Shown here piece by piece: positions 3,517-63,590 of a DNA stretch of 64,000 bases (positions are counted from its first letter, which is position 1; every line of letters starts with the position of its first letter). The DNA comes from Candidatus Parcubacteria bacterium (lineage in GTDB: Bacteria > Patescibacteriota > Microgenomatia > UBA12405), in contig JAEWUV010000007.1 in the NCBI GenBank assembly GCA_023396915.1, positions 82,077 to 146,076 of the forward strand, in the 5' to 3' direction. The translations under genes and the position numbers were made by a program. The notes beneath the pieces are model-generated. The model made no database searches, was not told the DNA's origin, and saw only the letters and a program-made list of their open reading frames with translations.

Positions 3517-3546
3517 AGACCGATGTCAGCCTTTGCTGACAAATTA

Positions 3547-3637: not shown

Positions 3638-3692
3638 TTTAACTTTACTCACCACTTTTGCTATACTGAATTATTAGATTTTAATTTTAAAA

Positions 3693-4175: not shown

Positions 4176-4177
4176 AA

Positions 4178-4894
4178 ATGAAAATAGTTTTTGATAAAGT
4201 TGATAAAAATTACGGGCTCATTAGTGCCCTAAAAGATATTACTTTTACCATTAATCCTGGTGAATTTGTTTTTATCATCGGACCTTCCGGGGCCGGCAAG
4301 TCAACTCTACTTAAACTTATTTTAAATCAAATCAAGCCGAGCCAAGGGATTCTAACCATAGATGATATTGATTTAAATTTTGGTAAAAAAAATGAAATTG
4401 ATAAAATTCGCCAAAAAATCGGCGTTATTTTCCAAGACTACCAACTTATTATGGACAAATCTGTCGAAGAAAATATTGCTCTTAGTTTAGACATTAACAA
4501 CTACCCCAAAGATAAAATTGCCGGTAAAATCGACGAAGTCATTAAAGAGGTAAATTTAAACAGCCGTCGCTATCTTTTCCCCTCACAACTGTCTGGGGGA
4601 GAACTACAACGAGCCGCCCTTGCCCGAGCCTTAGCTATCGAACCGGAAGTAATTTTGGCCGATGAACCTACCGGTAATCTAGACATGGAAAATTCTTGGA
4701 ATCTCGTCAAGCTCTTAAAAGATATTAATCAAAAAAACGGTACTACTGTCATAATGACCACTCACAATCAAGAGATTATCAATTCACTTGACAAGCGTAA
4801 AATTGAAATTGACAAAGGTGTTTTAGTCTCCGATTCGAATAAGCCTAAAAAAACCAAAAAAGTTAAAATTTCAAAAAAAGATGAACTCAATTAA
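4178..4894 (+). CDS. ftsE: Cell-division ABC transporter ATP-binding protein FtsE
   Basis: Walker [13 protein letters not shown] signature LSGGELQR, Walker [12 protein letters not shown]. It is followed by ftsX with an overlapping junction. Confidence 0.85.
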
Positions 4895-5753
4895 AACTGC
4901 CTGGCACCATATTCGCCGTTCTCCTATTCAAAGTTTTACTGCTCTTCTTTTAATGACTTTCAGTTTTATTTTAATTTCCTTTTTTATTATTATTAGTAAG
5001 GGGACAGTTGAAACTTTAACCTATTTTGAAACTAAACCGGAAATTACCATTTATCTCAAAGATGGTTTGGAAAATACTATAATTGAAAATTTAAAAACTG
5101 AACTGGCCAATTATCAAAATGTCAAAGAAGTTAGATTTATTTCCAAAGAAAAAGCTTTAGAGCTTTACCGACAACAGAACCAAGATAATGCCGCCTTAAC
5201 CGAGATGGTGACCGCCAGTATTCTTCCGGCCTCTATTGAAGTTACCGTTTCCGACCCTTCAGCCTTGGAAAAAATTTATCAAAATTATGCTACCAGAAGC
5301 GATATCGTTGATGAAATTATTTATCAAAAAGACGTCATTAATACCCTTCTTGATTGGACCAATACTATTCGCAAAGGCGGAATTGTCATTATTTCAATTG
5401 TCCTTTTGGTCACTTTTTTTGCTGTTTCTTCTATTATCGGCATGAAAACTACTAACCGCAAAGATGAGATAAAAATCAGCCGTCTTTTAGGTGCTTCTAA
5501 CTGGTACGTCAAAAAACCGTTTTTATTGGAAGGTATTTTTTATGGTTTTTGGGGTAGTTTCGTCGCCTCAATCGTAGTTTTTAGTTTTTTTATTATCAAG
5601 CGTCAGCTTATAAATTCTTTCTTTTCTCCGATTGAATTTGTCCCTTCAGATTTTAGTTTATATGCCATTTTATTAATGGCAGAAATAACTTTGGGTTGTT
5701 TTGTCGGTTTTCTCGCCAGCCTTATTGGAGTCAAAAGATATATTAAGTTTTAA
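4881..5753 (+). CDS. ftsX: Cell-division permease-like protein FtsX
   Basis: 290 aa. One N-terminal TM, a large extracytoplasmic loop, then three C-terminal TM helices. Sits in the conserved ftsE-ftsX position. Confidence 0.8.
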   Translation: MNSIKTAWHHIRRSPIQSFTALLLMTFSFILISFFIIISKGTVETLTYFETKPEITIYLKDGLENTIIENLKTELANYQNVKEVRFISKEKALELYRQQNQDNAALTEMVTASILPASIEVTVSDPSALEKIYQNYATRSDIVDEIIYQKDVINTLLDWTNTIRKGGIVIISIVLLVTFFAVSSIIGMKTTNRKDEIKISRLLGASNWYVKKPFLLEGIFYGFWGSFVASIVVFSFFIIKRQLINSFFSPIEFVPSDFSLYAILLMAEITLGCFVGFLASLIGVKRYIKF

Positions 5754-5755
5754 TA

Positions 5756-6901
5756 ATGTTTTTAAAATTTAAATTTTTTTTTCTAGTTTTACTGACTTTA
5801 TTTTTAACCACTTCTAATTTTTTATATGCCAACGAAGAATCTGATTTAATAGCCAAATTGGCAGAATTGCGCAATCAGAAAAATACCCTAAACACTCAAA
5901 TACAATATCTTGATTCTCAGTATCAGTTAACTCTTTTAAAGATTAACCAAACTGAAACTTCCATTTCAAATTTAGAAAAAGAAATTGCCAGTCTTAATGT
6001 AGAAATAGGTAAGTTAGAAAAAGAAATCGATCAACTATCAGCCACTTATATTAGTCAAATTATCCAAAGTTATAAATTGCAAAAAAAATATCCCTCTTTT
6101 GCTTACCTTTTATTAGATAATCTAAACACCTTTCTCGAACAACACCAATATTCTTCAGCTATTCAGGCTAATAGTAAACAAAATTTAATTGACAGGGAAA
6201 CCGTTCGTTATAACTACGACACTCAAAAAACAGCTAAAGAGAAAAAACAAACCGAGTTAGAAACATTACAAAAAACTCTAGCTTCTCAAAAAATTAGTTT
6301 AGCTAATCAAAAATTTGCCAAAGATCAGTTACTTAAAACCACTGAGGCTGAATATAATCAAGTTCAACAACAACTTGCGGCTTTAAAAAGCTTTGCTAGC
6401 TCAGTTGGAGGAAATACTTGTTTAGATTCATCACCAGGAGGTGGTAGTGATGGCAATTTTTATTCTCAAAGAGATCCCCAATGGTGTAAAAAATATATTG
6501 GTATCTCTAATGATACTATCGGTTCTGTCGGGTGTTTTATAAGTAGTGTTTCTATGGTCTACAAAAAACTAGGTCATGATATAACTCCGTTATCTTACGC
6601 CTCTAATCCAAGTAATTTTTGGGGAAATACTGCTTATATGGTAGCTCCGTCACCCCCGTCTGGCTATACATACAAACAAGTTTCTTATAGTGCTAATACC
6701 GTAGACAATGAGTTAAAAGCTGGACGTTATGTCATAGCCCAAGTAAAAATGGCTAATATTTCTGGTATGCATTTTATTGTCATTATTAGTGGAAGCGGTG
6801 GTAATTATAAAATTCATGACCCTTGGTTCGGGGCTGATCAGAATTTTTCAGATCGTTATTCTACTGGCCTTATTATGAGTCTCCGTTTAATTACTAAGTA
6901 A
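5756..6901 (+). CDS. Secreted coiled-coil protein with C-terminal C39-like (YvpB/PF13529-type) cysteine peptidase domain; probable FtsEX-controlled cell-wall hydrolase (PcsB/EnvC analogue)
   Basis: Signal peptide, then about 200 aa of heptad-like coiled coil (LEKEIASLNVEIGKLEKEIDQL). C-terminal motif QRDPQW...TIGSVGCFISSVSMV with a downstream His (KIHDPW). Immediately follows ftsEX with a 2-nt gap. Confidence 0.65.
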   Translation: MFLKFKFFFLVLLTLFLTTSNFLYANEESDLIAKLAELRNQKNTLNTQIQYLDSQYQLTLLKINQTETSISNLEKEIASLNVEIGKLEKEIDQLSATYISQIIQSYKLQKKYPSFAYLLLDNLNTFLEQHQYSSAIQANSKQNLIDRETVRYNYDTQKTAKEKKQTELETLQKTLASQKISLANQKFAKDQLLKTTEAEYNQVQQQLAALKSFASSVGGNTCLDSSPGGGSDGNFYSQRDPQWCKKYIGISNDTIGSVGCFISSVSMVYKKLGHDITPLSYASNPSNFWGNTAYMVAPSPPSGYTYKQVSYSANTVDNELKAGRYVIAQVKMANISGMHFIVIISGSGGNYKIHDPWFGADQNFSDRYSTGLIMSLRLITK

Positions 6902-6948: not shown

Positions 6949-7599
6949 TTAAAATCCTCTAATTTTTCTTCTCAAAGCAAATCCCGAGAGACCTACTCCG
7001 ATAGCTCCGATAGTTTCTAAAACCAAACTCATACTACCGGTTTCTGGCAAGACTACTGTTTTTGGAGGTTCAACAGTAGAAACTTGTCCGGCTTTAATAT
7101 AGTAAATGGCATCATCTTTTTCGGTGATTTCATCTACACTGGCAACAGCCACGTTAGTCTCTTTAGTAAGAGTGTAAACTTCATTGGCTTTATCAATTCT
7201 AGCTCTAATCAAAAACTCTTGAGAATGACCGGCATTTAACTCATTAATAGTCCATTCAATTTTATTATCAGTACTATTATAAGTTCCTGGGAAGAAAATT
7301 AATTTCAAAAACGGAGGTAAATTATCAGAAACTTTAATATTTTTCATATTAGTAGTTCCGGTATTAGTTACCTTAATTTTGAATTCAATTATTTCACCAT
7401 CGTAAAATACCTTAGTATTACTGGAAATATTATCAACATAATGACTCCAGGAAAAAGGTCTGATTTTTTTATCTATCGATAATGTTTTTCTATTATCGTC
7501 ATTTGAATAACTATCAGCTTTAGCTGAAATAGGATTCAATATAAACAAAGAAAACACCGTTAAAACGGCTATTAATAATTTATTTTTCATATGTTCCAC
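6949..7599 (-). CDS. LPXTG-anchored cell-surface protein with DUF11-like repeat domain
   Basis: N-terminal signal peptide. C-terminal sortase sorting signal: LPETG, then a hydrophobic stretch, then the RRKIRGF basic tail. The VTNTGTTNMKNIKVSDNLP motif is typical of DUF11 (conserved repeat domain). Confidence 0.75.
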   Translation of the reverse strand: MEHMKNKLLIAVLTVFSLFILNPISAKADSYSNDDNRKTLSIDKKIRPFSWSHYVDNISSNTKVFYDGEIIEFKIKVTNTGTTNMKNIKVSDNLPPFLKLIFFPGTYNSTDNKIEWTINELNAGHSQEFLIRARIDKANEVYTLTKETNVAVASVDEITEKDDAIYYIKAGQVSTVEPPKTVVLPETGSMSLVLETIGAIGVGLSGFALRRKIRGF

Positions 7600-7688: not shown

Positions 7689-8417
7689 ATGGGTAAATTT
7701 TTAATAGACGAGTTATCTGTCTTTTTTCCTTGCTATAACGAAGAGAAAAACATCCAAAAAACTGTTTCCAAAGCAATTTTGGTTCTAAATAATGTAGCTA
7801 AACAATGGGAGATTATTTTAGTTAATGACGGTTCAAAGGATAATACAGGCCAAGTTCTAGAACAAATTAAAAAACAATACCCTAAACAAATTAGGATTAT
7901 CACTCACAATCCCAACCGAGGTTACGGAGCGGCTCTAAAAAGTGGGTTTTACAACGCCAAATATAATTGGATTACTTTTACCGATTCTGATGGTCAGTTT
8001 GATTTTTCAGAAATTACAGAATTTATAAAAAAACAACAAAATTCCAAAGCAGATTTAGTTATCGGTTATTATCTTTCTCGAAAAGTTTCTAAAACGACCA
8101 TTATTACTTCTAAAATTTGGGAATTTATCGTTTTTATCCTTTTTGGTTTAAAAGTCAAAGACATTGATTGCGCTTTTAAGTTAATCAGTAAAAAAGTTAT
8201 TAATACCATTCCTAAACTTGAGGCCGAAAGAGGAGCTTTTATCAGTAGTGAATTTTTAATCAAAGCCAAAAAAAGTGGTTTTAAAATAGTTGAAATTGGT
8301 GTTCATCATTATCCTCGTATCGAAGGTCAGGCTACCGGTAGGAATATCAAAGTAATTTTAAAAAGTTTTTCCGATCTTTTCCGTCTTTGGTTTAAAATTA
8401 ATTTTAACCGTGCTTAA
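7689..8417 (+). CDS. GT2 glycosyltransferase, Dpm1/ArnC/GtrB-like polyprenyl-phosphate sugar synthase
   Basis: FFPCYNEEKNI...VNDGSKDNT...DSDGQFD, the DxD-type GT-A signature. 242 aa. Directly upstream of and overlapping a GT-C membrane protein. Confidence 0.8.
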   Translation: MGKFLIDELSVFFPCYNEEKNIQKTVSKAILVLNNVAKQWEIILVNDGSKDNTGQVLEQIKKQYPKQIRIITHNPNRGYGAALKSGFYNAKYNWITFTDSDGQFDFSEITEFIKKQQNSKADLVIGYYLSRKVSKTTIITSKIWEFIVFILFGLKVKDIDCAFKLISKKVINTIPKLEAERGAFISSEFLIKAKKSGFKIVEIGVHHYPRIEGQATGRNIKVILKSFSDLFRLWFKINFNRA

Positions 8418-9894
8418 AAAAATAAAATTCTCCAGCTTGATTTTGGTTTTAATTCTTTTATTAGGATCTTTTCTAAGACTTTACAAAATAGGGGACTATA
8501 TGGAGTTTTTAGGCGATCAGGGTCGTGATGTTTATATTATTCGTGATCTTTTCCGTCATGGAAATTTATTTTTTATTGGCCCTCAAACCAGTATTGGCAA
8601 TATGTATCTTGGTCCTTGGTTTTATTATTTAATCGCTCCTTCCCTACTTGTAACTAATTTTAATCCCATTGGTCCGGCTATATTTATTGCTTTGATTAAT
8701 ATTGCCACTATTTATTTTACTTTTTTCGTCGCCAAAAAATGGTTTTCTCAATCAGTTGGATTAATTTCTGCCTTTCTTTTTGCCGCCTCACCGGTTGTTA
8801 TCAAATATTCAAACTTTATTTGGAATCCAAACATTATGCCTTTTTTTGCTCTAGTCTTTATTTATTTCTTTTTTGAAGGTTTATTTAACCATAAATACCA
8901 TTATTTTATTTATGCTTCTCTTGGTTTTATTATGGTTATTAATAGCCATTATTTGGGTTTAGCTTTATTGCTTATACCAGGAATCTATTGGCTAATAGAG
9001 TTAATTAAATTTATAAAAACCAAATCAAAATATCTTAAACCATTTTTAAAAAATACCTTTTTTGCTTTTTTGGTCTTTATTTTATCTTTAGGGCCGCAAA
9101 TTTTATTTGATATCAAACACCAAGGCCAAAATATTAAAGCTTTAATTCACTTTTTTACCTATCGCGAAACCACTGTTAATATTAAGGCTTACAAAGCCAT
9201 CCCCAAGCTTCCCGCTATCTTTAATCAAGTTGGAACCGATTTATTTAGTGGCCGTAATGTCTCTATCGGCTGGATAATTAGTCTCATTTTTACTCTTCTA
9301 ATTGTTTTATTTTTAATTTCTTCATTTAAAAAACGTCAAATTTCTAAACAATTTTTGGTTGTATTTTTCTGGTATTTATCCGGACTGACTGCTCTTTCAC
9401 TTTATAAACAACATATTTACGCTCACTATTTTGCTTTCCTCTTCCCTGCCGGATTCATGCTAATTTCGTTTTTAATCACCAAATTCAAATTTATTGGTAT
9501 CCCTCTTTTAGTTTTAATAACTTATTTTTCTTTTGCCAATAATCCCCTTAAATACCCTTCAAACCATCAAATGGCTACTGTTCAAAAAATAACCAATTCA
9601 ATTATAGAAAAGTCAGATAGCCAAAAATTTAACTTTGCTTTGTTGGCTAAACAAAACTATGATCCGCCTTACAAATATTTTTTGACTCAAAAAGATGAAA
9701 CCAAATTAGTTACTCTTCATCAGGAAATTACCGACCAATTATTTGTAGTGTGTGAAACCTATCAGATAGAATGCAATCCTATCAATAATCCCGAATGGGC
9801 CGTTGCTGCTTTTGGTTGGGCTAAAATTAATCAAGAATGGGAAATCGATGGTATTAAAATTTTCCGCCTTATTCACACTCAGAACGATAAATAG
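8410..9894 (+). CDS. Polytopic membrane GT-C glycosyltransferase, divergent ArnT/PMT_2-like
   Basis: 494 aa with at least 10 TM. The N-terminal loop motif LRLYKIGDYMEFLGDQGRDVYIIRDL...GPWFYYL resembles the first periplasmic loop of the PMT_2 family. Confidence 0.6.
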   Translation: MLKKIKFSSLILVLILLLGSFLRLYKIGDYMEFLGDQGRDVYIIRDLFRHGNLFFIGPQTSIGNMYLGPWFYYLIAPSLLVTNFNPIGPAIFIALINIATIYFTFFVAKKWFSQSVGLISAFLFAASPVVIKYSNFIWNPNIMPFFALVFIYFFFEGLFNHKYHYFIYASLGFIMVINSHYLGLALLLIPGIYWLIELIKFIKTKSKYLKPFLKNTFFAFLVFILSLGPQILFDIKHQGQNIKALIHFFTYRETTVNIKAYKAIPKLPAIFNQVGTDLFSGRNVSIGWIISLIFTLLIVLFLISSFKKRQISKQFLVVFFWYLSGLTALSLYKQHIYAHYFAFLFPAGFMLISFLITKFKFIGIPLLVLITYFSFANNPLKYPSNHQMATVQKITNSIIEKSDSQKFNFALLAKQNYDPPYKYFLTQKDETKLVTLHQEITDQLFVVCETYQIECNPINNPEWAVAAFGWAKINQEWEIDGIKIFRLIHTQNDK

Positions 9895-9908
9895 TTTAAA
9901 ATAGACTA

Positions 9909-10679
9909 ATGAAGACGTCTTTATCCATAGTTATCCCTTGCTACAACGAAGAGAATAACCTTAAAAAGGGAGTCCTAGATGATGTCTACGCTTTTTTAAA
10001 AAAACAATTGTTTGATTGGGAAGTTCTACTTTGCAACGATGAATCCACCGACGATAGCCTCAGTTTATTAAAGAACTTTGCCAAAAACCATAAAAAATTT
10101 CAGGTTTTAAATTTACCTCATGGAGGTAAACCGTCAGCTGTTTGGAGTGGTATTCAAAAAGCTAAATACCCAATAGTCTTATTCACTGATATGGATCAAT
10201 CCACGCCTCTCTCGGAGAGCCTTAAACTCTTGCCTTATTTTGACCAAGGCTATGATTTGGTTATTGGCTCCCGCGGAGCCAATCGTGAAGGCACTTCCGT
10301 GGCTCGTAAAATAATGTCAACCGTTTTTTTGTTTGGCCGTCGTCTTTTTCTACTTCCTAATATTGTTGATACACAATGTGGTTTTAAGGCTATTAAAACT
10401 AATTTAGCCAAAAATATATTTCCTAACCTACAATTTTTCAAAGAAAAAGAAGAGTCAAACGGGTGGCGGGTTTCCGCTTTTGATGTTGAACTTCTTTTTA
10501 TGGCCAAAAAATGGGGTTACAAAATAAAAGAAGTCCCTGTTAAATGGAAAAATGAAGATTCCAGCACTACCAAAGGTAACAATTCAGATCGATTTAAAAA
10601 AGAATCTCAACAAATGGTTAAAGAAATTATTAGAGTTAAATATAACGATCTTCGTGGGCTATATGATCAAGAAAAATAG
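9909..10679 (+). CDS. GT2 glycosyltransferase (Dpm1-like)
   Basis: SIVIPCYNEENNL...CNDESTDDS...FTDMDQSTP. 256 aa. Confidence 0.8.
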   Translation: MKTSLSIVIPCYNEENNLKKGVLDDVYAFLKKQLFDWEVLLCNDESTDDSLSLLKNFAKNHKKFQVLNLPHGGKPSAVWSGIQKAKYPIVLFTDMDQSTPLSESLKLLPYFDQGYDLVIGSRGANREGTSVARKIMSTVFLFGRRLFLLPNIVDTQCGFKAIKTNLAKNIFPNLQFFKEKEESNGWRVSAFDVELLFMAKKWGYKIKEVPVKWKNEDSSTTKGNNSDRFKKESQQMVKEIIRVKYNDLRGLYDQEK

Positions 10680-12189
10680 ATTTTGGCTCAAAATATTACT
10701 CTCTTTAGCCATTATTATTCTTTATTTTTTAATCCGCTTTCAACATCTTGATACTATTCCCGTCTTTGGTGATGAAGCTATTTATATTCGTTGGTCTCAA
10801 ATTATCAAAAATGAAGAAACCTTACGTTTTATTCCTCAAACAGATGGTAAACAACCACTTTTTATGTGGGCTACTGCTATTTTTCTTCGCTTCGTCTCAG
10901 ATCCCCTAATTGCCGGGCGGGCTATTTCAATTTTTTCCGGGTTTTTAACTTTAGTTGGGATTTTCTTTGTTAGTTGTATTCTCATTGATTTTACTATTCC
11001 TTTTAAAAACCCAGTTGAATTTATTAAAGAATCACTAAAAGACAATTTTTCTTATGGTTTTATAAGTGCTCTGCTTTATGTTCTTATTCCTTTTTCTTTT
11101 TTCTTTGATCGTTTGGCTACTGCCGACACCATGCTTTCGATGTTTGGTATTTGGTCAATATTTTTCTCCTTATTATTGGCTAAATTCAGGCGTTTGGACT
11201 TATCTTTAATTCTGGGAACAATTTTAGGTCTTGCCTGGCTAACTAAATCTCCTGCCGTTTATTTTATTGTCCTTTCTTTATTAACCTATTTAACTTTTAA
11301 TCTTCGTCATCTAAAAACTATATTTTTTCCACTAATATCAGCTTTTATTTCATTTTTGATTTACAACATTCTTCGTCTTGGTCCCCAATTCCATATGATT
11401 GCCCTTCGTAATCGTGATTACATCTGGAGTTTGTCAGAAATTATAAAACATCCACTAGATCCTCTCAAACCTCATCTCAGTGATACTTTTACTATTTTTA
11501 GTCAATATATTTCTTGGCCTGTGTTGTTTTTTTCTCTTCTTGGTTTATTTTTCTTTTTTTTCTATCAAAAAAACAAACAACTTTTAGTTATTTTTTCCTG
11601 GTTTTTTCTGCCTTTAATTGCCAACTGTGCTATAAGTAAGGTTTTTACTGCCAGGTATATTCTTTTTGTTTTACCCTCTTTAATAATTTTACTTAGTACC
11701 GGCTTATCGGTCTTTTTCAAAAGCAGTCTTGGTCGTTTAATTTTTGTTTTAATTTTATTAATTCCTAATATTCTTTGGATCAGAAAAGTATCCCTTAACC
11801 CATTTAATATTAACTTACCTTCCACCGAAACAGGTTATCTTTCTGGATGGACTTCAGGTTGGGGAATTAAGCAGGCCAGTCATTATCTAAAAGAAAAAGC
11901 TCTTGAATACAATGTTATTGTTGGTACAGAAGGTTCTTTTGGTACACTCCCTGACGGGCTGCAAATTTATGCCGATCACATTCCTCAGTTAACCATTATT
12001 GGTTATGGTCTTGGATTTACCTCTATTCCTGACGCTTTAACTAACGCTAAAAAATCAGGTGATGAAGTTTATTTACTCATAAATCAGTCACGTCTTTCTT
12101 TAAACTCTGATCAATTAGACAAATTAACCTTGGTCGATAAATATCCAAAACCGGCAAATGATAATTTATTGCTTTACCAATTAAATTAA
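10663..12189 (+). CDS. Polytopic membrane GT-C glycosyltransferase (ArnT/PMT_2-like)
   Basis: The ORF track starts at 10552 inside the upstream GT2. The internal ATG at 10663 (MIKKNRFWLKILL...) gives a 17-nt overlap and a typical N-terminal TM. The FGDEAIYIRWSQ loop carries the DE motif. Confidence 0.65.
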   Translation: MIKKNRFWLKILLSLAIIILYFLIRFQHLDTIPVFGDEAIYIRWSQIIKNEETLRFIPQTDGKQPLFMWATAIFLRFVSDPLIAGRAISIFSGFLTLVGIFFVSCILIDFTIPFKNPVEFIKESLKDNFSYGFISALLYVLIPFSFFFDRLATADTMLSMFGIWSIFFSLLLAKFRRLDLSLILGTILGLAWLTKSPAVYFIVLSLLTYLTFNLRHLKTIFFPLISAFISFLIYNILRLGPQFHMIALRNRDYIWSLSEIIKHPLDPLKPHLSDTFTIFSQYISWPVLFFSLLGLFFFFFYQKNKQLLVIFSWFFLPLIANCAISKVFTARYILFVLPSLIILLSTGLSVFFKSSLGRLIFVLILLIPNILWIRKVSLNPFNINLPSTETGYLSGWTSGWGIKQASHYLKEKALEYNVIVGTEGSFGTLPDGLQIYADHIPQLTIIGYGLGFTSIPDALTNAKKSGDEVYLLINQSRLSLNSDQLDKLTLVDKYPKPANDNLLLYQLN

Positions 12190-12210: not shown

Positions 12211-13977
12211 ATGTTTAAAATCTTTATCAAAAAACATTTTTGGTTTATCTTGTCTCTTCTTTTTATTATTCCGGCAATATTCTTTTTATTTAAACCGGGG
12301 ATTTATTGGAATATGCACGATGATATGCAAATGATTCGTCAATTGGAAATGGAAAAATGCCTCAAAGACGGCCAAATACCTTGTCGTTGGACCCCAGATT
12401 TAGGTTATGGCTATGGTTATCCTTTGTTTAATTTTTATCCCCCAATGCCTTATTTTGTCGGCCAAATTTACCGTACTTTTGGTTTTTCTTTCGTAAATTC
12501 TGTCAAAGCCACTGCTCTTACTCAAATAGTTCTTTCTTCTGTTTTTATGTTTATTCTGGCCGCTTCAATTTTTGGTCCAATTGGTGGTTTTATTGCTTCT
12601 GTTTTTTATACTTACGCTCCTTATCACGCTCTTAATATCTATGTCCGCGGAGCCATGAATGAGGCTTGGGCCGCCGTCTTTTTTCCTTTGGTTTTCTATT
12701 TTTCTCGCTGTTTAGTTTTAGATAAAAAAATCAAAAATCTCTTGGGTTTAAGCTTGTCTTTTGCCGGTATTTTACTGTCACACAACCCTATGGCTCTTAC
12801 TTTTACTCCGATTCTTTTCCTCTGGGTTCTTTTTTGGTTTTTAAAACCTTATTTTTGGTCAACTAAAAAAATAAGGTTTATTCAATTTTTCAAACAACAA
12901 CTTAATTTAATAACTAAGTTAGCTGTTTCCGGTATTTTTGCTCTTGGGTTTACTGCTTTCTATACCTTACCGGTTCTTTTTGAAACTAAATATGTTCAAA
13001 TCGAATCCATGTTTACTGGTTATTATCACTTTTCAGTTCATTTTGCCGGACTTTTTCAACTTTTTATCAGTAATTTTTGGGGAGACGGAGCCTCAGTCTG
13101 GGGCCCAAATGACGATATGTCTTTTATGATTGGTTATCTCCATTGGCTAGTTCCACTAGTTCTATTAATCAGTATTGGTATTTTGTTAGTTAAAAATAAA
13201 CAAAAACTCAAAAAAATGGATTATCGATATTGGTTAGTTTTATTAACTGTACTTCTCGGTTTCGGGGCTGTTTTTATGACTCATAATAAATCAACTTTTG
13301 TCTGGTTCCTTTTCCCTGTTATTCAAAAGATCCAATTCCCTTGGCGTTTTCTTAACCATTCAGCTTTTTTACTTTCTTTTTCATCAGCCGGTATAGTTTT
13401 GTTTTTACAAAAACTTAAACTCCCCAAAAAAGAAATTGTTTCAATCTGTTTAGCAATTCTTGTTTTTGCTCTAAACATTTCCTATTTCCACCCTCTTCAT
13501 TCCGGGCCAATTACAGATGAACAAAAATTCTCCGGCAAAGCCTGGGTCAATCAGGTTACTTCAGGTATTTATGATTATCTTCCTAAAACCGCCCGCATTG
13601 CCGCCCAAGGCCCTGCCAAAGATTATATCGATGAAATTTCTCCAAACACCGCTACTTCAACAATTAGTGATGAACAAAAAGGTAGTAATTGGAGCTATTT
13701 TAATCTTAACCTTTCCCAAGACGCTCAAATTATTTTGGCCCAACTAGCTTTCCCTAAATTTTTGATTACGGATAATGGTAAACAGATTGATTATCAAATT
13801 GAACCAGAACTTGGCCGAATTGTAATTGATTTATCTTCTGGTAATCATCAAATTTTTGTAAAGTTTATTGATACTCCAATTAGAACCGTCTCTAATTATA
13901 TTTCCTTTGCTACTTGGGTTGGGTTGGCAATTTATTTATCACGGAATTTATGGAAGAAATTAATCTTCAAGAAATAA
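12211..13977 (+). CDS. Large polytopic membrane protein, putative GT-C/YfhO-like glycan transferase or polymerase
   Basis: 588 aa with at least 12 TM. N-terminal motif W..DLGYGYGYPLFNFYPPMPY. No soluble catalytic domain. Confidence 0.5.
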   Translation: MFKIFIKKHFWFILSLLFIIPAIFFLFKPGIYWNMHDDMQMIRQLEMEKCLKDGQIPCRWTPDLGYGYGYPLFNFYPPMPYFVGQIYRTFGFSFVNSVKATALTQIVLSSVFMFILAASIFGPIGGFIASVFYTYAPYHALNIYVRGAMNEAWAAVFFPLVFYFSRCLVLDKKIKNLLGLSLSFAGILLSHNPMALTFTPILFLWVLFWFLKPYFWSTKKIRFIQFFKQQLNLITKLAVSGIFALGFTAFYTLPVLFETKYVQIESMFTGYYHFSVHFAGLFQLFISNFWGDGASVWGPNDDMSFMIGYLHWLVPLVLLISIGILLVKNKQKLKKMDYRYWLVLLTVLLGFGAVFMTHNKSTFVWFLFPVIQKIQFPWRFLNHSAFLLSFSSAGIVLFLQKLKLPKKEIVSICLAILVFALNISYFHPLHSGPITDEQKFSGKAWVNQVTSGIYDYLPKTARIAAQGPAKDYIDEISPNTATSTISDEQKGSNWSYFNLNLSQDAQIILAQLAFPKFLITDNGKQIDYQIEPELGRIVIDLSSGNHQIFVKFIDTPIRTVSNYISFATWVGLAIYLSRNLWKKLIFKK

Positions 13978-15404
13978 AACACAAAACTACCAGCAGTGTC
14001 ATTTTTTTATCTCTTCGAAATATTGGTATTCAGGCTATCTCCTTTATTGGCTTTTTTATCCTCACCATTTTATTAGGAACCGGAGAGGTTGGTCTCTTTG
14101 CCATTGTCTCTGAATCTGTTGGAATTCTGGGTTATTTTTCTGATGTTGGTTTGGCTGCCGCTTTAATTCAAAAAAAAGACAAAGTAAAAAAAATAGATCT
14201 CCAAACCACTTTTCTGATTCAACAAGTTTTAGTTTTTTTATGTATTGTTGCCATTGGAATTGCCTTTAAAAATATCAGTCTGGCCAAAGCTTACGGACCA
14301 AAAGAAATGTGGATATTTATTTCTCTTTGTTTCGCTTTTATAAGTGCTTCTCTTAAAACTATCCCATCAGTTTTACTCGAAAGAAAACTTAATTTTAAAG
14401 TTATTTCTACCGTTGATATCAGCGAAAATCTCAGTTTTTATTTAGTGGCGGTTATTTTTGCTTTTTTTGGTTTTGGTGCCTATTCCTATGCCATTGCTAC
14501 TTTTGTTCGCAGTATCGTTGGTTTAATTATGATGTATCGTCTCAACCCATGGCCGATTGGTTTTTCTTTTTCCAAAAAAAGCGTCAAAGAGTTGTTTAAG
14601 TTCGGTATTCCTTATCAATTGAATACATTTATATCTCTGTTTAAAGATCGTCTTTCTAATCTTTTGGTCTTTAGTATAATTGGTCGGGATGGCACCGGTA
14701 TCCTTGCTTGGGCTCAGAAAGGCCCTCGAATTCCTTTAAGCTTTATGGATGCTATCATGAAGGTAACTTTCCCCACCTTTTCTCGTCTTCAAGACCAAAA
14801 AGATATTCTCAAAAAATCATTGGAAAAGAGTATATATTTTATTGCCCTTTTTGTTTTTCCTGCCTCGGTCGGTATCGCCTTAATTGCCCCAAGCTTAATT
14901 AATATTATTCCCAAATATACCAAATGGTTACCGGCTGTTATTCCGCTCTATTTTTATTGTGCCAATGTTGCTATCGCCTCTATTACCAGTCCTCTGACTA
15001 ATGCTTTTAACGCTGTTGGTAAAATCACTACCACTACCAAACTAATGGTTATGTGGACGGTTTTAACTTGGATTCTTTTTCCATGGTTTACCATTAAATA
15101 TGGCTATGTTGGTACCGCCATTGCTACTTTATTAGTTGGTTCAAGTTCTGTAGTTGTTTGGATTTTGGCTAAAAAAATATTTGATGTTAATATCATCAAT
15201 ACAGTTAAACACCCTTTAGCAGCCTCTATCTTAATGCTCGCTTTCATTCTTCTTTTTCAACAAGTCTCACCAAATTATTTAGCCACTTTTATTGGTACTA
15301 TTTTAATCGGTATAACTACTTTTTCTCTTTATAATCTGATTTTTTGTAAAAAAGAAATTATTTGGTTTTGGGATCAACTCAAATGTTTAAAAAACAAAAA
15401 ATAA
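13950..15404 (+). CDS. Wzx-type polysaccharide flippase (MOP superfamily, Polysacc_synt)
   Basis: About 14 TM. N-terminal SLRNIGIQAISFIGFFILTILLGTGEVGLFAIV is typical of Polysacc_synt proteins. The ORF track gives 13914; the ATG at 13950 is used here. Confidence 0.7.
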   Translation: MEEINLQEIKHKTTSSVIFLSLRNIGIQAISFIGFFILTILLGTGEVGLFAIVSESVGILGYFSDVGLAAALIQKKDKVKKIDLQTTFLIQQVLVFLCIVAIGIAFKNISLAKAYGPKEMWIFISLCFAFISASLKTIPSVLLERKLNFKVISTVDISENLSFYLVAVIFAFFGFGAYSYAIATFVRSIVGLIMMYRLNPWPIGFSFSKKSVKELFKFGIPYQLNTFISLFKDRLSNLLVFSIIGRDGTGILAWAQKGPRIPLSFMDAIMKVTFPTFSRLQDQKDILKKSLEKSIYFIALFVFPASVGIALIAPSLINIIPKYTKWLPAVIPLYFYCANVAIASITSPLTNAFNAVGKITTTTKLMVMWTVLTWILFPWFTIKYGYVGTAIATLLVGSSSVVVWILAKKIFDVNIINTVKHPLAASILMLAFILLFQQVSPNYLATFIGTILIGITTFSLYNLIFCKKEIIWFWDQLKCLKNKK

Positions 15405-25945: not shown

Positions 25946-26023
25946 ACCATAATCATATCACCCCAGCAGGTTATTCTTTTGTTGAAAATGGTTTTTTAAA
26001 ATGAGACACTTTCATATTCTTTT

Positions 26024-41521: not shown

Positions 41522-42616
41522 ATGGCAAGAAAAATAAATATTGCTATTGATATTTCACCTACTATTGATGGTAATTCTGTCAGAGGCGTTGGTTACTATA
41601 CCCAAAATTTAGTTGATGCCCTCCAAAAAGAAATTAAGACTAATCCTTTATATAAAAATTGGTCAATTGACCTTATCAAAAACAACCAATATCTAAAATC
41701 CAATATCTATCATCTAATTCACTATCCTTATTTTGATCCATTCAAACTCACTCTACCTCGTAATAATAAACCCACTGTTGTTACTGTCCACGACCTGATT
41801 CCCATCCAGTTCAAAAGTCATTTTCCTGTTGGGTTTAAAGGTTGGTTAAAGTGGCATATTCAGAAGTTTCATCTTCGTCGGGTTTCGGCCATCATCACCG
41901 TATCTGAATATTCCAAAAATATAATCTCTAAACTTATTAAATATCCCCTTAACAAAATAGTAGCCACCCATTTGGCGGCTGACGAAAACTTCAAAGTCAT
42001 TTCCGATACTAAACTTTTAAAATCAATTACCCAAAAATATAAATTACCTCCAAAATTTGTCCTTTTTGTCGGCGATATAAATTGGAATAAAAACATTCCC
42101 AATCTAGTCAAAGCCTGTAAAAAATGTAAATTCCCTTTGGTTATTGTTGGGTCTAGCGCCACTAAAACAGATGTCCCTATCCATCCTTGGACAAAAGATC
42201 TTCGTTGGCTTCAAAAACAAGCTAACAAACCAACAACCAAAAAAAATAAAAGACTTATACTAACCGGTTTTGTTTCCGATCAAGAATTGGCCGTTATTTA
42301 CAATTTGGCTACAGTTTATTGTCAGCCATCATTTGCTGAAGGTTTTGGTTTACCACTAGTTCAAGCGATGCAATCTGGTTGCCCGGTAGCCCACGGCTTT
42401 CATACCTCACCTCCAGAAGTTATGGGAGATGTTGGTTTATCTTTTAATCCTCGTTCGGTCGAAGATATTCAATCAGTTCTCAAAAAATATTGGAATGATT
42501 CTAAACTACGTCGAAATCAAAAAATATTAGGCCTATCCCGAAGCCATATATTTAAATGGTCCACCACCGCTCAAAAAACCCTCGCCCTGTATTCAACCCT
42601 AATCCCAAATGAATAA
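41522..42616 (+). CDS. GT4 (GT-B) glycosyltransferase
   Basis: C-terminal FAEGFGLPLVQAMQSGCPV. 364 aa. Confidence 0.75.
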   Translation: MARKINIAIDISPTIDGNSVRGVGYYTQNLVDALQKEIKTNPLYKNWSIDLIKNNQYLKSNIYHLIHYPYFDPFKLTLPRNNKPTVVTVHDLIPIQFKSHFPVGFKGWLKWHIQKFHLRRVSAIITVSEYSKNIISKLIKYPLNKIVATHLAADENFKVISDTKLLKSITQKYKLPPKFVLFVGDINWNKNIPNLVKACKKCKFPLVIVGSSATKTDVPIHPWTKDLRWLQKQANKPTTKKNKRLILTGFVSDQELAVIYNLATVYCQPSFAEGFGLPLVQAMQSGCPVAHGFHTSPPEVMGDVGLSFNPRSVEDIQSVLKKYWNDSKLRRNQKILGLSRSHIFKWSTTAQKTLALYSTLIPNE

Positions 42617-43409
42617 TAATCACTTTATCTCGATAATTGTCCCTGTTTATAAACAAGAAAAAACTATTGCCAAAGACTTAGACAATATTTCTTCTGTTTT
42701 AAAACAAGTTCGCTATGATTATGAAATCATAGTTGTTGTTGATGGTACTAAAACTGACAAATCCTATCAAATTATTAAAAAATTAAAATTTCCTAAAGCA
42801 AAAACTTACGGTTACAAACATAATCACGGCAAGGGTTATGCTATTCGCTATGGTATGGCTAAAACTAAAGGGGATTACATTGCTTTTATTGACTCCGGCA
42901 TGGAAATTGATCCCAACGGTCTTTCTATGATTCTTGAACATATGGAATGGTATAACGCTGATATTATAGTTGGTTCAAAACAACATCCAGCTTCAGTTGT
43001 AAATTATCCTTTCCAAAGAAAAATAATAAGTTTTGGTGGCTATCTGATAGCCAAATTCTTACTTGGAATTAATGTCCATGACACCCAAGCTGGTCTCAAA
43101 ATTTTCCGTCGTCAAGTTTTAGAAAAAGTTCTTCCCCGACTTTTAATCAAAAATTATGCTTTTGATTTAGAAATACTTTCTGTTGCCAATCATCTTGGTT
43201 TTACTAAAATTTACGAAGCCCCGGTTAAGCTTAACTATAACTTCAAAAGTTTAACTCACGCCACTGGTTTTAAAGTTATTTATAGATGTTTAGTTGACGC
43301 ATTAGCTGTTTTTTATCGGCTCCGTATACTTAAATACTACGATGACAAAAACAAACGCAAGTGGGTTTATGACCCTGATTTAGAAATGAGAATTAACACT
43401 GGTCTATGA
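42609..43409 (+). CDS. GT2 glycosyltransferase, Dpm1-like polyprenyl-phosphate sugar synthase
   Basis: ISIIVPVYKQEKTI...VVDGTKTD...FIDSGME. 266 aa. Confidence 0.75.
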   Translation: MNNNHFISIIVPVYKQEKTIAKDLDNISSVLKQVRYDYEIIVVVDGTKTDKSYQIIKKLKFPKAKTYGYKHNHGKGYAIRYGMAKTKGDYIAFIDSGMEIDPNGLSMILEHMEWYNADIIVGSKQHPASVVNYPFQRKIISFGGYLIAKFLLGINVHDTQAGLKIFRRQVLEKVLPRLLIKNYAFDLEILSVANHLGFTKIYEAPVKLNYNFKSLTHATGFKVIYRCLVDALAVFYRLRILKYYDDKNKRKWVYDPDLEMRINTGL

Positions 43410-58468: not shown

Positions 58469-60241
58469 CTATTCTTTTACCGGATAAATTAATTGAAATA
58501 CTGCATCATCGTCTTTTTCCAACACTCCGTCAATCAACAAATTACCATCAGAATATGAATTAGATTTAGAATAGACCAAAGATAATGGTGTCTCCACCTC
58601 TTCAACACTTGGTTCAACCGTAAAACAATATTCCTTCCCTTCAGAGTCTTTTAATTCATTAAATAAGACTTCACGATATTCATAGTCTGTGATTTTTTCA
58701 ACGCTAATTGGTGTTTCCAAAATTTTTGTTTTACAATCAGCTTCATACAATTTCAGGCTATAAGGAGTAGCTACTTTCTTTCCGTTTCCGTAAGTCGCAA
58801 AAAACACATTTATTCCCTTTAAATTATTCTTTGGAGACTTAAAAGTTTGATAATAGATATTAGAATCATCAATTTTTCCCACTAATTCATTTCTAGATAT
58901 TAATCCCAAATCATACCAATCAACATCCTTTCTATTTCGCAAATAATTCATTCCTACCACATAAACAAAACAAATTAGTAAGTAAATAAACAAAGGTAAA
59001 AGTGAAAAATATTTTATTTCTTTTTCAATCAAATCATTCTTTTTTTTCTCAAAAAACAAAATGTAAATATATGCTAAAAATGCCGCAAAAAATAAACTAT
59101 AAATAATACTAAAAAATTTAAAATCAGGAAAATAAGTCGAAATAAAATCTCCTAAAGGAATAATTTTATTAATCATCGGGAAACTGACCGAAAATAAATT
59201 CATATCAATGTTTCTTGACCATGAAAACAGACTAATAAAAAAACAAAAAAGAATCAGACAATATAAATAAAACAACCTTCTGTCTTTGTAAACAGTTAAT
59301 ACAAAAAATGGCATAATCCACAAAAACCAATGAGGGATAAAAAAAGAAGCTAAATAAAACAAGGATAAAATCAAAAAACAATATTTAGTTAAAACCTCAT
59401 TTTTATTATCATCATTAACATCTTGTTTAAAAAACAAAAAGAAAACTATCAAAAAATAAAATAAAGGAAATAGTAATGGGCCATTTAAAATATTTCTTTG
59501 AAGAATAAACAATCCTTCACCTCCACCAGTCACAAAAGTATGAGCCACTTCATAAAAAATCATATAGGGAATTAAATAAACCACTGCAGACACTAGACAA
59601 TAAATAATTGTTTTTTTTACATTTTTATTTGCCAAAATAACAGCAGCAGGTAGTACTAAAAATACAGCATAATTCTTCATCGCCATAGACAACCCCAAAA
59701 AAATCATTGCCCAAATATTCTTTTTCTTAAAAGCAAATAACAAAAATAACAAAGAAAAAAACATCGGATAAATATCATTATTTCCCCAAGCAAATGGCAC
59801 AAAGATTAAAACTGGGCAGAGTAACCACAAAAGAAAAATTTTATTTATATCCTTAAAATCTTTTATATGGCTTTTAACTAACCCACCCACCAAAAACAAA
59901 GCTAATATAAACAAAACTAAATACCTCAATTTCAATAAAAAGCTGACCAATACTAGTTGATCTGTAGTAATTTCGTTCATTAAATCAAACTTGTAAATTC
60001 CCAATTTCTGAAATGGAAAATACAATAAACCATCTATCAAATGAAAAACCGGTGGAAAAAATGAAGAATAAGTTAATCCTCTCTCTGCAGTTTCAACTTT
60101 GAGACTAAGATCACCATTGGCAATTCTAGCAGAATTAACAGCAACATTAACTAAATCAGAATGATAAGTAAACTTAGAGATAATCAAAACAATTCCAATT
60201 ACAAAAATTATCCAAAACCAATATTTTTTAAATATTTTCAT
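58469..60241 (-). CDS. Large polytopic membrane protein with C-terminal extracytoplasmic domain (unknown function, candidate glycan-processing enzyme)
   Basis: 590 aa. About 12 TM in the first 430 aa, then a soluble C-terminal domain of about 150 aa. Confidence 0.45.
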   Translation of the reverse strand: MKIFKKYWFWIIFVIGIVLIISKFTYHSDLVNVAVNSARIANGDLSLKVETAERGLTYSSFFPPVFHLIDGLLYFPFQKLGIYKFDLMNEITTDQLVLVSFLLKLRYLVLFILALFLVGGLVKSHIKDFKDINKIFLLWLLCPVLIFVPFAWGNNDIYPMFFSLLFLLFAFKKKNIWAMIFLGLSMAMKNYAVFLVLPAAVILANKNVKKTIIYCLVSAVVYLIPYMIFYEVAHTFVTGGGEGLFILQRNILNGPLLFPLFYFLIVFFLFFKQDVNDDNKNEVLTKYCFLILSLFYLASFFIPHWFLWIMPFFVLTVYKDRRLFYLYCLILFCFFISLFSWSRNIDMNLFSVSFPMINKIIPLGDFISTYFPDFKFFSIIYSLFFAAFLAYIYILFFEKKKNDLIEKEIKYFSLLPLFIYLLICFVYVVGMNYLRNRKDVDWYDLGLISRNELVGKIDDSNIYYQTFKSPKNNLKGINVFFATYGNGKKVATPYSLKLYEADCKTKILETPISVEKITDYEYREVLFNELKDSEGKEYCFTVEPSVEEVETPLSLVYSKSNSYSDGNLLIDGVLEKDDDAVFQLIYPVKE

Positions 60242-62657: not shown

Positions 62658-63590
62658 TTAAAAATTTAATTTCTCCCCAATTATATATTGGGGCCTTGCT
62701 TTAGTCTCCTCCACAATCACTTGAATATATTTTCCAATAATACTTAATGCCATCAAATTTAAACCGCCAAAAAAAACTACAGCTAACATTATCGGAATCG
62801 ATGCATTTATTGGATTTCCAAAAACAAATACAGTAAACAAATAACCAACTATGAATAAAAATGATAACAAAGTTATAATCGAACCAAAATAAACCATTAA
62901 ATCCAAAGGTAAATAAGAAAACCCAAAAATCCCTCTTTCCGAATGATGTAAATAATCAAAAAAATTATAAGAACTTTTACCATTTTTTCTTTCTCGTCTT
63001 TGATAGGGGATAAAAGTTCTTTTAAATCCTACCCACACAGTTAACCCTCTCCCAAAACGATATTTCTCTGGTAAAGATTTCAATGCATCAATCACTTTTC
63101 TATCATAAAGACCAAATCCTGTTACATTTATTGGTACGTCAACATTTGAAATTTTTTTAAAAATTTTATAAAACCACTTACGCATTAATGTCATAAAAAA
63201 AGAATCAACCATCCCTTTGTATTGTCCTAAAACCACATCATACCCCTCTTCCCATTTTTTAATAAATTTCGGAATCATCTCTGGCGGATCCTGCAAATCA
63301 CAAGGCAAAAGTATTACAACATGACCACTTGAACTATCTAAACCAGCTTGAGCAGATGCTTCTGGTCCAAAGTTTCTAGACAAAAACACTCCTTTAACTC
63401 TCTTATCTTCTTTTATAATTTTTTTTATCTCTGTTCTAGTGTTATCACAACTCCCATTGTCAACAAAAACAAATTCATAATCATATTTTTTCTCTTTATC
63501 AATTATTTTCTTTATTTCATTAAAAGCCCAATAAACATTCTTATCTTCATTAAAACAAGGAACGGCTATTGTTATTAATTTCATATTCAT
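62658..63590 (-). CDS. GT2 polyprenyl-phosphate sugar synthase (GtrB/ArnC/Dpm1-like) with two C-terminal TM helices
   Basis: ITIAVPCFNEDKNV...FVDNGSCDNT...LPCDLQDPPE. The C-terminal 90 aa hold two TM helices, the classic GtrB/ArnC architecture. 310 aa. Confidence 0.8.
   Translation of the reverse strand: MNMKLITIAVPCFNEDKNVYWAFNEIKKIIDKEKKYDYEFVFVDNGSCDNTRTEIKKIIKEDKRVKGVFLSRNFGPEASAQAGLDSSSGHVVILLPCDLQDPPEMIPKFIKKWEEGYDVVLGQYKGMVDSFFMTLMRKWFYKIFKKISNVDVPINVTGFGLYDRKVIDALKSLPEKYRFGRGLTVWVGFKRTFIPYQRRERKNGKSSYNFFDYLHHSERGIFGFSYLPLDLMVYFGSIITLLSFLFIVGYLFTVFVFGNPINASIPIMLAVVFFGGLNLMALSIIGKYIQVIVEETKARPQYIIGEKLNF

Follow-up and report, generated by a model that had tools for sequence, protein, structure and literature searches.

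Does a stretch of DNA crowded with glycosylation genes in an ultra-small bacterium encode pairs of enzymes in which a cytoplasmic glycosyltransferase of family 2 (GT2) charges a lipid carrier with a sugar and a membrane-embedded glycosyltransferase of the C fold (GT-C) passes this sugar on outside the cell? The question is raised by four consecutive genes at positions 7689-12189 of the window, i.e., the whole 64,000-nucleotide (nt) stretch analyzed here, which stems from contig JAEWUV010000007.1 of Candidatus Parcubacteria bacterium (assembly GCA_023396915.1) and to which all coordinates refer. An initial annotation had described these genes as a repeated cassette, in which a GT2 resembling ArnC, GtrB or Dpm1 lies immediately upstream of a GT-C transferase. 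Our analysis indicates that the two GT2s, termed GT2a and GT2b, probably load a sugar on a lipid carrier inside the cell, and that outside the cell their partners, GT-Ca and GT-Cb, hand it on to a molecule of the surface.

The gene quartet and the class of its GT2 enzymes

All four reading frames are present at exactly the coordinates that the initial annotation had assigned to them:

7689..8417, plus strand: GT2a, a GT2 of 242 amino acids (aa) without transmembrane (TM) anchor, predicted polyprenyl-phosphate hexose/sugar synthase
8410..9894, plus strand: GT-Ca, 494 aa, GTG start, predicted GT-C glycosyltransferase of the PMT_2 family with an ArnT-like predicted fold
9909..10679, plus strand: GT2b, a GT2 of 256 aa without TM anchor, second predicted polyprenyl-phosphate sugar synthase
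10663..12189, plus strand: GT-Cb, 508 aa, ATG start, predicted GT-C glycosyltransferase of the PMT_2 family

Together they form one tight operon. GT2a ends with ...CGT GCT TAA (stop codon at 8415-8417) and overlaps GT-Ca, with its GTG at 8410-8412, by 8 nt; 14 nt separate the end of GT-Ca (9894) from the start of GT2b (9909), and GT2b, with its TAG stop at 10677-10679, shares 17 nt with GT-Cb, whose ATG begins at 10663. Public annotations of the products are generic ('glycosyltransferase family 2 protein', 'family 39 protein'). For GT-Cb, a mechanical list of open reading frames gave an earlier start, 10552; position 10663 is the better choice because its methionine is shared by the orthologues, being nearly invariant in their alignment, and because the public gene call likewise comprises 508 aa. 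In the case of GT-Ca, the public call begins at M31 (window position 8500) and yields a protein of 464 aa that would lack the conserved first TM segment (TM1). We retained the GTG at 8410, since many homologues of 490-496 aa span the longer N-terminus including TM1.

Both GT2s belong to Pfam family PF00535 (106 bits for GT2a, 82 bits for GT2b), and more specific models point to the enzymes that transfer sugars to polyprenyl phosphates, the polyprenyl-phosphate glycosyltransferases (Pren-P GTs). GT2a is matched over its full catalytic domain by the NCBIfam models for ArnC (74.9 bits, residues 6-223), the haloarchaeal dolichol-phosphate (Dol-P) hexose transferase, PpgS and AglJ. Its matches to PgaC, TuaG, WcaA, NodC and similar models are confined to the N-terminal ~100-125 residues; PgaC reaches about the same score as ArnC, but only over residues 7-126. 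The pattern for GT2b is similar, with full-domain matches to the Dol-P-hexose transferase and AglJ models, N-terminal matches to other GT2 classes, and 53.9 bits for the ArnC model NF007986 (cut-off 529). When the PDB was searched by sequence with phmmer, the full-domain matches of GT2a were ArnC (62 bits), GtrB (61 bits) and PfDPMS, a dolichol-phosphate mannose synthase (DPMS; 41 bits), and those to chondroitin synthase, GalT1, TagF and heparosan synthase were N-terminal only; GT2b matched GtrB best (47 bits, residues 4-204), followed by ArnC and DPMS. A grouping with processive or glycan-extending GT2s, which the initial annotation had named as the outcome that would speak against it, was not found, as matches to such enzymes reach no further than the N-terminal portion.

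The same enzymes were retrieved by structure comparison. An AlphaFold2 model of GT2a (pLDDT 87.2, pTM 0.86) was compared with the PDB using Foldseek, and the best 23 matches are all ArnC, PfDPMS or GtrB (E 1.3e-16 to 1.1e-11, query TM-score (TMq) 0.64-0.81). PfDPMS aligned across all 242 columns of the model including the C-terminal helix (TMq 0.81), and the first enzyme other than a Pren-P GT was CgT (5hea, TMq 0.61).

Residues D48, N77, D100, D102, Q104, R128, R131, R137, S141 and R205 have been named in a structural study of ArnC, the first Asp of the DxD motif has been proposed as general base in all Pren-P GTs, and the extended DxDxQ motif reads 100-DADLQN in ArnC, 94-DADLQD in GtrB and 89-DADLQH in DPMS; the acceptor phosphate is bound by R128, R137 and S141 of ArnC (R117, R131 and S135 of DPMS) and the donor phosphate by R205 (R202 of DPMS) (PMC12690121). 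When the ArnC catalytic residues were mapped onto GT2a via a HMMER alignment, D48 (D47 in GT2a), N77 (N76), D100 (D99, the proposed base), D102 (D101), Q104 (Q103), R131 (R131), S141 (S141) and R205 (R210) were found to be kept, and the DxDxQ motif is present as D99-S-D101-G-Q103. Conservation among 80 GT2a sequences reaches at least 95% for each of D47, N76, D99, D101, Q103, R131 and R210; for S141 it is at least 90% in alignment A2. In GT2b, D44, D94-M-D96-Q97, R122, R126, R133 and D154-T-Q-C-G-F-K160 are conserved in 52 orthologues. The DxD motif is therefore kept, with the Gln one position off DxDxQ, and R122, R126 and R133 align with Arg or Lys residues of GtrB. The stretch D-T-Q-C-G-F-K may be ALG5-like (Dol-P-Glc synthase); the motif was not found in a full-text search, and the lead was left unused.

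Two further GT2s of the window had been singled out by the initial annotation, both as Dpm1/GtrB-like and the second also for two C-terminal TM helices of the GtrB/ArnC type:

42609..43409, plus strand: GT2c, a GT2 of 266 aa without TM anchor, GT2a/GT2b subfamily
62658..63590, minus strand: GT2d, 310 aa, predicted Pren-P GT of the GtrB/CsbB/ArnC type with two C-terminal TM helices

Both descriptions were borne out. The best PDB match of GT2c is PfDPMS (49.8 bits, residues 7-205), and the PpgS model covers its residues 9-213; in full-length BLASTP comparisons GT2c is 27% identical to GT2a (E = 1.8e-17) and 27% identical to GT2b (E = 8e-16). As GT2a and GT2b share 30% identity over their full length, the three form one subfamily with 27-30% identity, although the case for GT2c as a polyprenyl-phosphate synthase is weaker than that for GT2a or GT2b. 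GT2d is matched nearly end to end by the NCBIfam models for PgfS (244 bits, residues 6-306) and ArnC (133 bits, residues 3-305) and has hydrophobic helices at residues 238-256 and 267-285. As a negative control we used the window's eight other GT2s: none matched the ArnC or Dol-P-hexose transferase models at E <= 1e-5, and their matches to PgfS, PpgS and AglJ cover the N-terminal ~120 residues only.

GT-C partners and the conservation of the pairs

PMT_2 is the sole Pfam match of both partner proteins (28.0 bits for GT-Ca and 35.5 bits for GT-Cb at a gathering cut-off of 26.1), and PF02366, MIR and PMT_4TMC were detected by Pfam in neither of them. The assignment of GT-Cb as a probable GT-C enzyme of the PMT_2 family is shared by its relatives, 18 of 19 aligned members matching PMT_2. 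Homologues of GT-Ca are annotated with PF13231, with or without PF02366, and some of the PF02366 annotations are weak. At least eight hydrophobic segments were counted in GT-Ca and nine in GT-Cb. GT-Ca is predicted to adopt a GT-C fold closest to that of ArnT: its AlphaFold2 model (pLDDT 84.3) retrieved only GT-C enzymes among the 43 top PDB matches in Foldseek, with ArnT (5f15, E = 2.2e-7, TMq 0.63) in first place and AglB/STT3/PglB, ALG9/ALG12, Pmt and Emb/Aft among the others.

The GT-C fold has a polytopic core of 7-13 TM segments, with an extracytoplasmic loop following TM1, and the catalytic carboxylates of GT-C enzymes sit directly after TM1. Just past TM1, GT-Ca carries the invariant motif E32-F-L-G-D36-Q-x-R39-D40, and at the corresponding place GT-Cb has the invariant motif P33-x-F-x-D37-E38-x-I-Y (F-G-D-E-A-I-Y) in addition to invariant K63, R86, D149, R150, K195 and R238. 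A comparison of the two families with hhalign (E = 1.4e-4, 299 columns) aligned these loop-1 motifs with each other, which suggests that GT-Ca and GT-Cb are related, at the level of profiles only.

Inside the window, adjacency of a GT2 and a GT-C gene says little, because 13 GT2 and at least 12 GT-C genes are present, and GT2s that are not of the Pren-P type also adjoin GT-C genes (the GT2 gene at 30461 follows 28686-30464, and that at 40697 follows 39054-40697). Across genomes, adjacency is significant, and it is this conservation, together with the class of the GT2s, that carries the argument. Relatives were detected in 455 stretches when species-representative genomes were scanned, and 80 loci were taken for comparison. 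Among the 70 loci with enough space after GT2a, GT-Ca comes next in 69; GT-Cb comes next after GT2b in 40 of 42. Most junctions within the pairs overlap, that between GT2a and GT-Ca typically by 4, 8 or 19 nt. The pairing is held in Shapiro-, Woese-, Collier- and Amesbacteria, even though GT-Ca identity drops to 33-45%. GT2a itself is 58-87% identical across Microgenomates, the named close homologues stemming from Candidatus Shapirobacteria and Woesebacteria, which places the bacterium studied here among the Microgenomates (Candidate Phyla Radiation/Patescibacteria). Its mean identity in 29 Shapirobacteria-type loci (75.6%) is on a par with that of the release factor (72.3%) and FtsE (71.7%), so that GT2a is conserved at the level of housekeeping proteins; GT2b follows with 70.7%, GT-Ca with 60% and GT-Cb with 59%.

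The term 'repeated cassette' holds insofar as there are indeed two GT2/GT-C pairs. A recent tandem duplication was considered as their origin and rejected, given the 30% identity of the GT2s, the profile-level similarity of the GT-Cs and the occurrence of separate orthologues throughout the lineage; by sequence, the pairs appear to be ancient, distinct and separately conserved orthologous groups.

A window saturated with glycosyltransferases, in which other GT2s also adjoin GT-Cs, might suit a different reading, namely that GT2a and GT2b are ordinary cytoplasmic Leloir enzymes extending a lipid-PP-linked or other glycan and that their position reflects the general clustering of genes for envelope glycans. 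NCBIfam scores that all stay under the curated cut-offs would agree with this, as would the PgaC score of GT2a, despite its restriction to part of the protein. We nevertheless regard it as very improbable: only Pren-P GTs are found among the full-domain matches and among the top 23 structural matches, the eight control GT2s show another pattern, the catalytic residues of Pren-P GTs are largely kept, and adjacency is maintained in nearly all loci compared.

Greater weight has to be given to the possibility that the GT2s do make polyprenyl-phosphate sugars but that the pairs are not dedicated, either because the sugars enter a common pool or because the GT-C acts mainly as an anchor or activator, as Ppm2 and DPM3 do. 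The window contains four Pren-P-type GT2s for at least 12 GT-C genes, and relatives contain zero to three additional GT-Ca-like paralogues between the two pairs, after GT-Ca, that have no GT2 of their own. Precedents exist for both versions, since the Listeria donor synthase GttA serves the glycosylation of wall as well as lipoteichoic acid (PMC8035078) and Ms-Ppm1 binds the non-catalytic membrane protein Ppm2 (PMC3485146). On the other hand, the strict adjacency of GT2 and GT-C genes with overlapping stop and start codons has been kept over deep divergence, and the invariant loop-1 acidic motifs together with the many other invariant charged residues argue that GT-Ca and GT-Cb have been selected as enzymes and not as mere anchors. 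All in all, we see a minor though appreciable chance for non-dedicated pairs and favor the reading in which each GT-C would use the sugar supplied by its neighbor.

In ten Woesebacteria-type loci (L035, L041, L043, L044, L047, L048, L053, L055, L064 and L070), one or two genes for proteins of ~330 aa at ~8.1-9.3 kb are located between GT-Ca and the further GT-Ca-like paralogues. They were considered as additional GT2s and rejected, as the N-termini of the proteins from L041, L043 and L053 resemble DHH/NrnA phosphoesterases, a judgement made on motifs by eye. Woesebacteria-type relatives also have a gene for a conserved membrane protein of ~345-400 aa divergently upstream of GT2a, in the place of a DUF11 protein described below.

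The proposed scheme, its candidate flippase and related systems

Two further genes extend the module downstream:

12211..13977, plus strand: third GT-C-like membrane protein, 588 aa
13914..15404, plus strand: Wzx-type MOP-family protein, candidate flippase, start uncertain (TTG at 13914 or in-frame ATG at ~13950)

The former follows GT-Cb in 27 of 32 loci and is in turn followed by the Wzx-type protein in 16 of 19. It has no Pfam or NCBIfam match of its own and at least eight hydrophobic segments. We consider it probably the third GT-C of the module because its orthologues match PTPS_related (PF10131) or PMT_2 (10 and 6, respectively, of 19 aligned sequences, i.e., this protein and 18 orthologues) and because M35-H36-D37-D38 is invariant after TM1; an hhalign comparison of this family with GT-Cb gave a weak result (9.8% probability). 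The Wzx-type protein is recognized by Polysacc_synt_3 (155 bits) and the NCBIfam MOP flippase model PRK10459 (126 bits) and has 10 hydrophobic segments.

In the scheme that we propose, GT2a and GT2b would reside at the cytoplasmic face of the membrane, held there by amphipathic helices and possibly also by the co-translated GT-C partner. With a nucleotide sugar as donor, each would charge polyprenyl (undecaprenyl) phosphate with a monosaccharide, such that two different polyprenyl-phosphate monosaccharides arise. These would be flipped across the membrane, with the Wzx-type protein as candidate flippase, and on the outer side GT-Ca, GT-Cb and the third GT-C would glycosylate an acceptor of the envelope, which may be a wall glycopolymer, a lipoglycan or a surface protein. 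Support for the two-step logic of the initial annotation, in which a GT2 charges polyprenyl phosphate and a GT-C transfers the sugar outside, comes from the class of the GT2s, the family of the GT-Cs, the predicted fold of GT-Ca and the conserved pairing. Such donors may feed the whole GT-C array of the locus.

Several findings weigh against this scheme, and we gather them here. All NCBIfam scores are far under the equivalog cut-offs (74.9 versus 529 bits for GT2a with ArnC NF007986, and 48 versus 370 bits with PpgS). The sequences thus give no indication of orthology to any characterized enzyme, and because no protein reaches such a cut-off the names ArnC, Dpm1 and GtrB are used as analogies only. 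The HMMER alignment places Y128 and T137 of GT2a opposite the acceptor-phosphate ligands R128 and R137 of ArnC, and GT2b lacks an Arg at the position of ArnC R205. The acceptor-phosphate site of both enzymes would accordingly seem canonical in part only, and K132, K135 and K142 of GT2a, which are nearby, might stand in for the two arginines. GT2a, GT2b and GT2c have no TM segment and hence none of the C-terminal TM anchors of GtrB, ArnC and DPMS, and no small partner of the GacJ or DPM3 type adjoining any of the three was found in the window. Finally, GpgS structures, which represent soluble GT-A enzymes acting on phosphorylated small molecules, also match the GT2a model (TMq 0.68-0.69, E ~5e-10).

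The latter match, together with weak N-terminal matches to the NCBIfam GpgS model and the lack of a TM segment, could be taken to mean that the GT2s glycosylate a small phosphorylated metabolite in the manner of glucosyl- or mannosyl-3-phosphoglycerate synthases and have no role at the membrane. We find this hardly credible. The GpgS matches fall short of those to Pren-P GTs by six orders of magnitude, the sequence match is limited to residues 8-102, and the genes are translationally coupled to that for a polytopic membrane GT-C. Moreover, the GT2a model contains helices at residues 135-152, which is hydrophobic (mean hydropathy of residues 136-154, 1.64), and at 220-239, where residues 217-237 form a strongly amphipathic C-terminal helix (hydrophobic moment 0.71); according to the model, these helices occupy the sites of the juxtamembrane helices of DPMS, GtrB and ArnC and may serve as interface helices of the kind that guides the phosphate of the lipid into the active site. 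Their equivalents in GT2b are more polar.

Further points against a membrane-crossing scheme with lipid-linked sugars concern its later steps. No open reading frame of the window matches GtrA (PF04138), and no stretch of uncovered DNA in the window is long enough for such a gene, which agrees with the initial annotation, where no small GtrA-like flippase had been seen. Two candidates were rejected, one at 21822-22301 with a single N-terminal TM segment and an extracytoplasmic domain, the other at 2944-3516 with five TM segments and no GtrA match. The absence of GtrA from the window leaves no gap in the logic because the Wzx-type protein is available as a candidate flippase. GacK, a Wzx-type protein, is the proposed flippase for C55-P-GlcNAc in S. 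pyogenes (PMC8035078), and a MATE-family protein has been proposed to flip Und-P-ribofuranose in a three-component system of Citrobacter (PMC11127046). By analogy and on the basis of synteny, it is plausible that the protein encoded at 13914-15404 substitutes for GtrA; it could equally flip Und-PP-oligosaccharides made by the many Leloir enzymes encoded nearby. An initiating phosphoglycosyl transferase was not seen within the window. As for the GT-Cs, single-sequence and profile searches of the PDB with GT-Ca and GT-Cb gave no meaningful match, which is why the placement of GT-Ca relies on the predicted fold, and a literature search returned no relevant publications on these proteins or on Pren-P GT/GT-C systems in the Candidate Phyla Radiation (CPR) or Microgenomates.

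Several adjacent pairs of a GT-A and a GT-C gene per genome are known from Gram-positive bacteria, namely CsdA-B, CsdC-D and CsdE-F in L. lactis, CsbB-YfhO, YkcC-YkcB and YkoT-YkoS in B. subtilis and GtlA/GtlB in Listeria (PMC8035078). The module resembles them in that a gene for a C55-P-sugar GT2 would lie beside one for a polytopic GT-C, with several such pairs in one genome, and in that the organisms are monoderm, as is probably the case here, where LCP (LytR-CpsA-Psr) and sortase-type envelope genes are found nearby. It differs from them because the reference GT-As have one or two TM helices and are accompanied by a GtrA-type flippase (GtcA, CflA), whereas GT2a, GT2b and GT2c are devoid of TM helices, GtrA is missing from the window, the GT-Cs are PMT_2/ArnT-like and no equivalog cut-off is reached.

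Closer in this respect is GacI/GacJ/GacK/GacL of S. pyogenes, which forms the GlcNAc side chain of the group A carbohydrate with a cytoplasmic GT-A and its membrane partner, a Wzx flippase and a GT-C (PMC8035078). TM-less GT2a and GT2b, the Wzx-type protein and the GT-Cs would fit this arrangement, except that no GacJ-like small activator with three TM segments lies beside the GT2s and that the flippase role is deduced here from synteny. Mycobacteria provide another TM-less Pren-P GT, Ms-Ppm1, which is encoded in an operon with the integral membrane protein Ppm2 and binds to it (PMC3485146). The operon structure with a membrane protein is the same; here, however, the partner would be the GT-C itself and not an Lnt-like protein. 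The PPM-dependent mycobacterial GT-Cs (Pmt, PimE/GT87, Mpt, Emb/Aft) are comparable insofar as many GT-Cs use polyprenyl-phosphate monosaccharides to build envelope glycans outside, and a GT87-like GT-C occurs in the window as well (58469-60241). Nothing points to mannose or GalNAc, and the PpgS score is far from its cut-off. By analogy, GT2a, GT2b and GT2c resemble the variant of a cytoplasmic GT-A plus partner (GacI/J, Ms-Ppm1/Ppm2) more than GtrB or ArnC proper.

With ArnC-ArnT, which act via Und-P-L-Ara4FN on lipid A, the module shares the two-step logic; ArnC is the best or near-best match of GT2a in sequence and structure and ArnT the best structural match of GT-Ca. GT2a differs in lacking the TM helices and two acceptor-binding arginines of ArnC and in a score of 75 against 529 bits, and the companions arnA, arnB, arnD, arnE and arnF are absent from the Pfam assignments of the window. 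A CPR organism is probably monoderm and hence would lack lipid A. The same chemistry would apply to GtrA-GtrB-GtrC of Shigella and Salmonella phages and to eukaryotic Dpm1-PMT, GtrB and PfDPMS being top matches. GtrA, however, is lacking in the window and the GT-Cs are not of the GtrC type (Glucos_trans_II), nor do GT-Ca and GT-Cb possess the MIR and PMT_4TMC domains of PMT, PMT_2 being all that is found. In summary of these analogies, the system does not appear to be ArnC/ArnT, GtrB/GtrC or Dpm1/PMT itself but is likely to work as they do.

A more far-reaching idea, which is unlikely to hold as it stands, is that GT2a-GT-Ca-GT2b-GT-Cb-GT-Cc-Wzx, with GT-Cc for the third GT-C, constitutes a core and possibly essential envelope machine of Microgenomates. 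TM-less Pren-P GTs would dock on co-translated GT-Cs, Wzx would flip polyprenyl-phosphate monosaccharides, and the dozen or more GT-Cs would build a whole glycopolymer or lipoglycan outside, comparable to the assembly of mannan and arabinan in mycobacteria but in an ultra-small bacterium. The conservation of GT2a at the level of release factor and FtsE and the location of the module near LCP and FtsEX genes are hints in this direction.

The scheme as such is well established in bacteria and is applied here to new, strongly conserved and uncharacterized sequences. The envelopes of CPR/Patescibacteria are biochemically almost unstudied, and yet a genome of ~0.9 Mb devotes a 64-kb stretch to glycosylation genes. 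The module is small, conserved throughout the lineage and has a testable mechanism, which makes it an entry point to cell-surface display, e.g., in host attachment. Having TM-less synthases coupled to GT-Cs and a Wzx-type protein but no GtrA, it could become a compact model for the handover and flipping of polyprenyl-phosphate sugars.

Neighboring genes and the wider glycosylation locus

The G+C content of the window is 28-34%. Apart from the 13 GT2s and at least 12 GT-Cs, its glycosylation genes encode five GT4 enzymes, the Wzx-type MOP protein, a Wzm/Wzt-like ABC transporter, Glf, DegT, an acetyltransferase and radical-SAM enzymes.

Upstream of the module, the plus-strand region 1756-6901 encodes the LCP protein, FtsE, FtsX and a coiled-coil/C39-like protein and shows conserved synteny with the GT2a module in loci of the Shapirobacteria type; the release factor gene is also located upstream. 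From the presence of the LCP gene, a glycopolymer attached to the wall is to be expected, and this could be the acceptor. The divergent neighbor of GT2a (6949-7599, minus strand) encodes a DUF11/CLIPPER surface protein, the C-terminus of which carries a sortase sorting signal consisting of LPETG, a hydrophobic stretch and RRKIRGF. It is kept at this position in Shapirobacteria-type loci with 29-69% identity, and it is a possible substrate of glycosylation. Downstream, 15362-17092 encodes a protein of 576 aa with nine hydrophobic segments and no family assignment.

Seven paralogous GT-Cs of the PMT_2 type are encoded at 23679-40697 (starting at 23679 on the minus strand and at 28686, 32537, 34213, 35862, 37460 and 39054) and share 27-34% mutual identity. 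Five of the seven are arranged head-to-tail, a large outlay for a ~0.9-Mb genome. Interleaved with this array are genes for three paralogues of ~440 aa (26024-27352, plus strand; 27309-28631, minus strand; 31225-32556, plus strand) that are 25-28% identical, have no Pfam match and might be Wzy- or ligase-like. A B12-binding radical-SAM enzyme (44310-45800, plus strand) and a SPASM-domain radical-SAM enzyme (47799-48821, plus strand) are encoded among GT2 and GT4 genes, which suggests an unusual sugar or peptide modification.

GT2d lies in a contiguous minus-strand operon at 58469-64000 together with the following genes:

58469..60241, minus strand: GT87-like GT-C, Pfam GT87 27.6 bits (cut-off 25), end of the operon
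60228-61487, minus strand: DegT aminotransferase
61484-62650, minus strand: Glf, UDP-galactopyranose mutase
63647-64000, minus strand: C-terminal fragment of an NAD-epimerase-like protein, cut by the end of the window, called from the sequence by eye

This order makes up a third cassette running from synthase to GT-C, a hint that the lipid-linked sugar may be out of the ordinary, for instance galactofuranose or an amino sugar. Next to the operon, an ABC-2 permease (55490-56305) and an ABC ATPase (57729-58457) form a Wzm/Wzt-like pair that is split by a DUF5674 gene, small open reading frames and a minus-strand frame of 145 aa. With a RhuM/Fic protein encoded beside it (54494-55471, minus strand), the region 54494-58457 gives the impression of a transporter operon that has received an insertion. 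In nearly all 2-kb bins of the window the GC skew is negative (cumulative -6.05), although most of the genes are on the plus strand.

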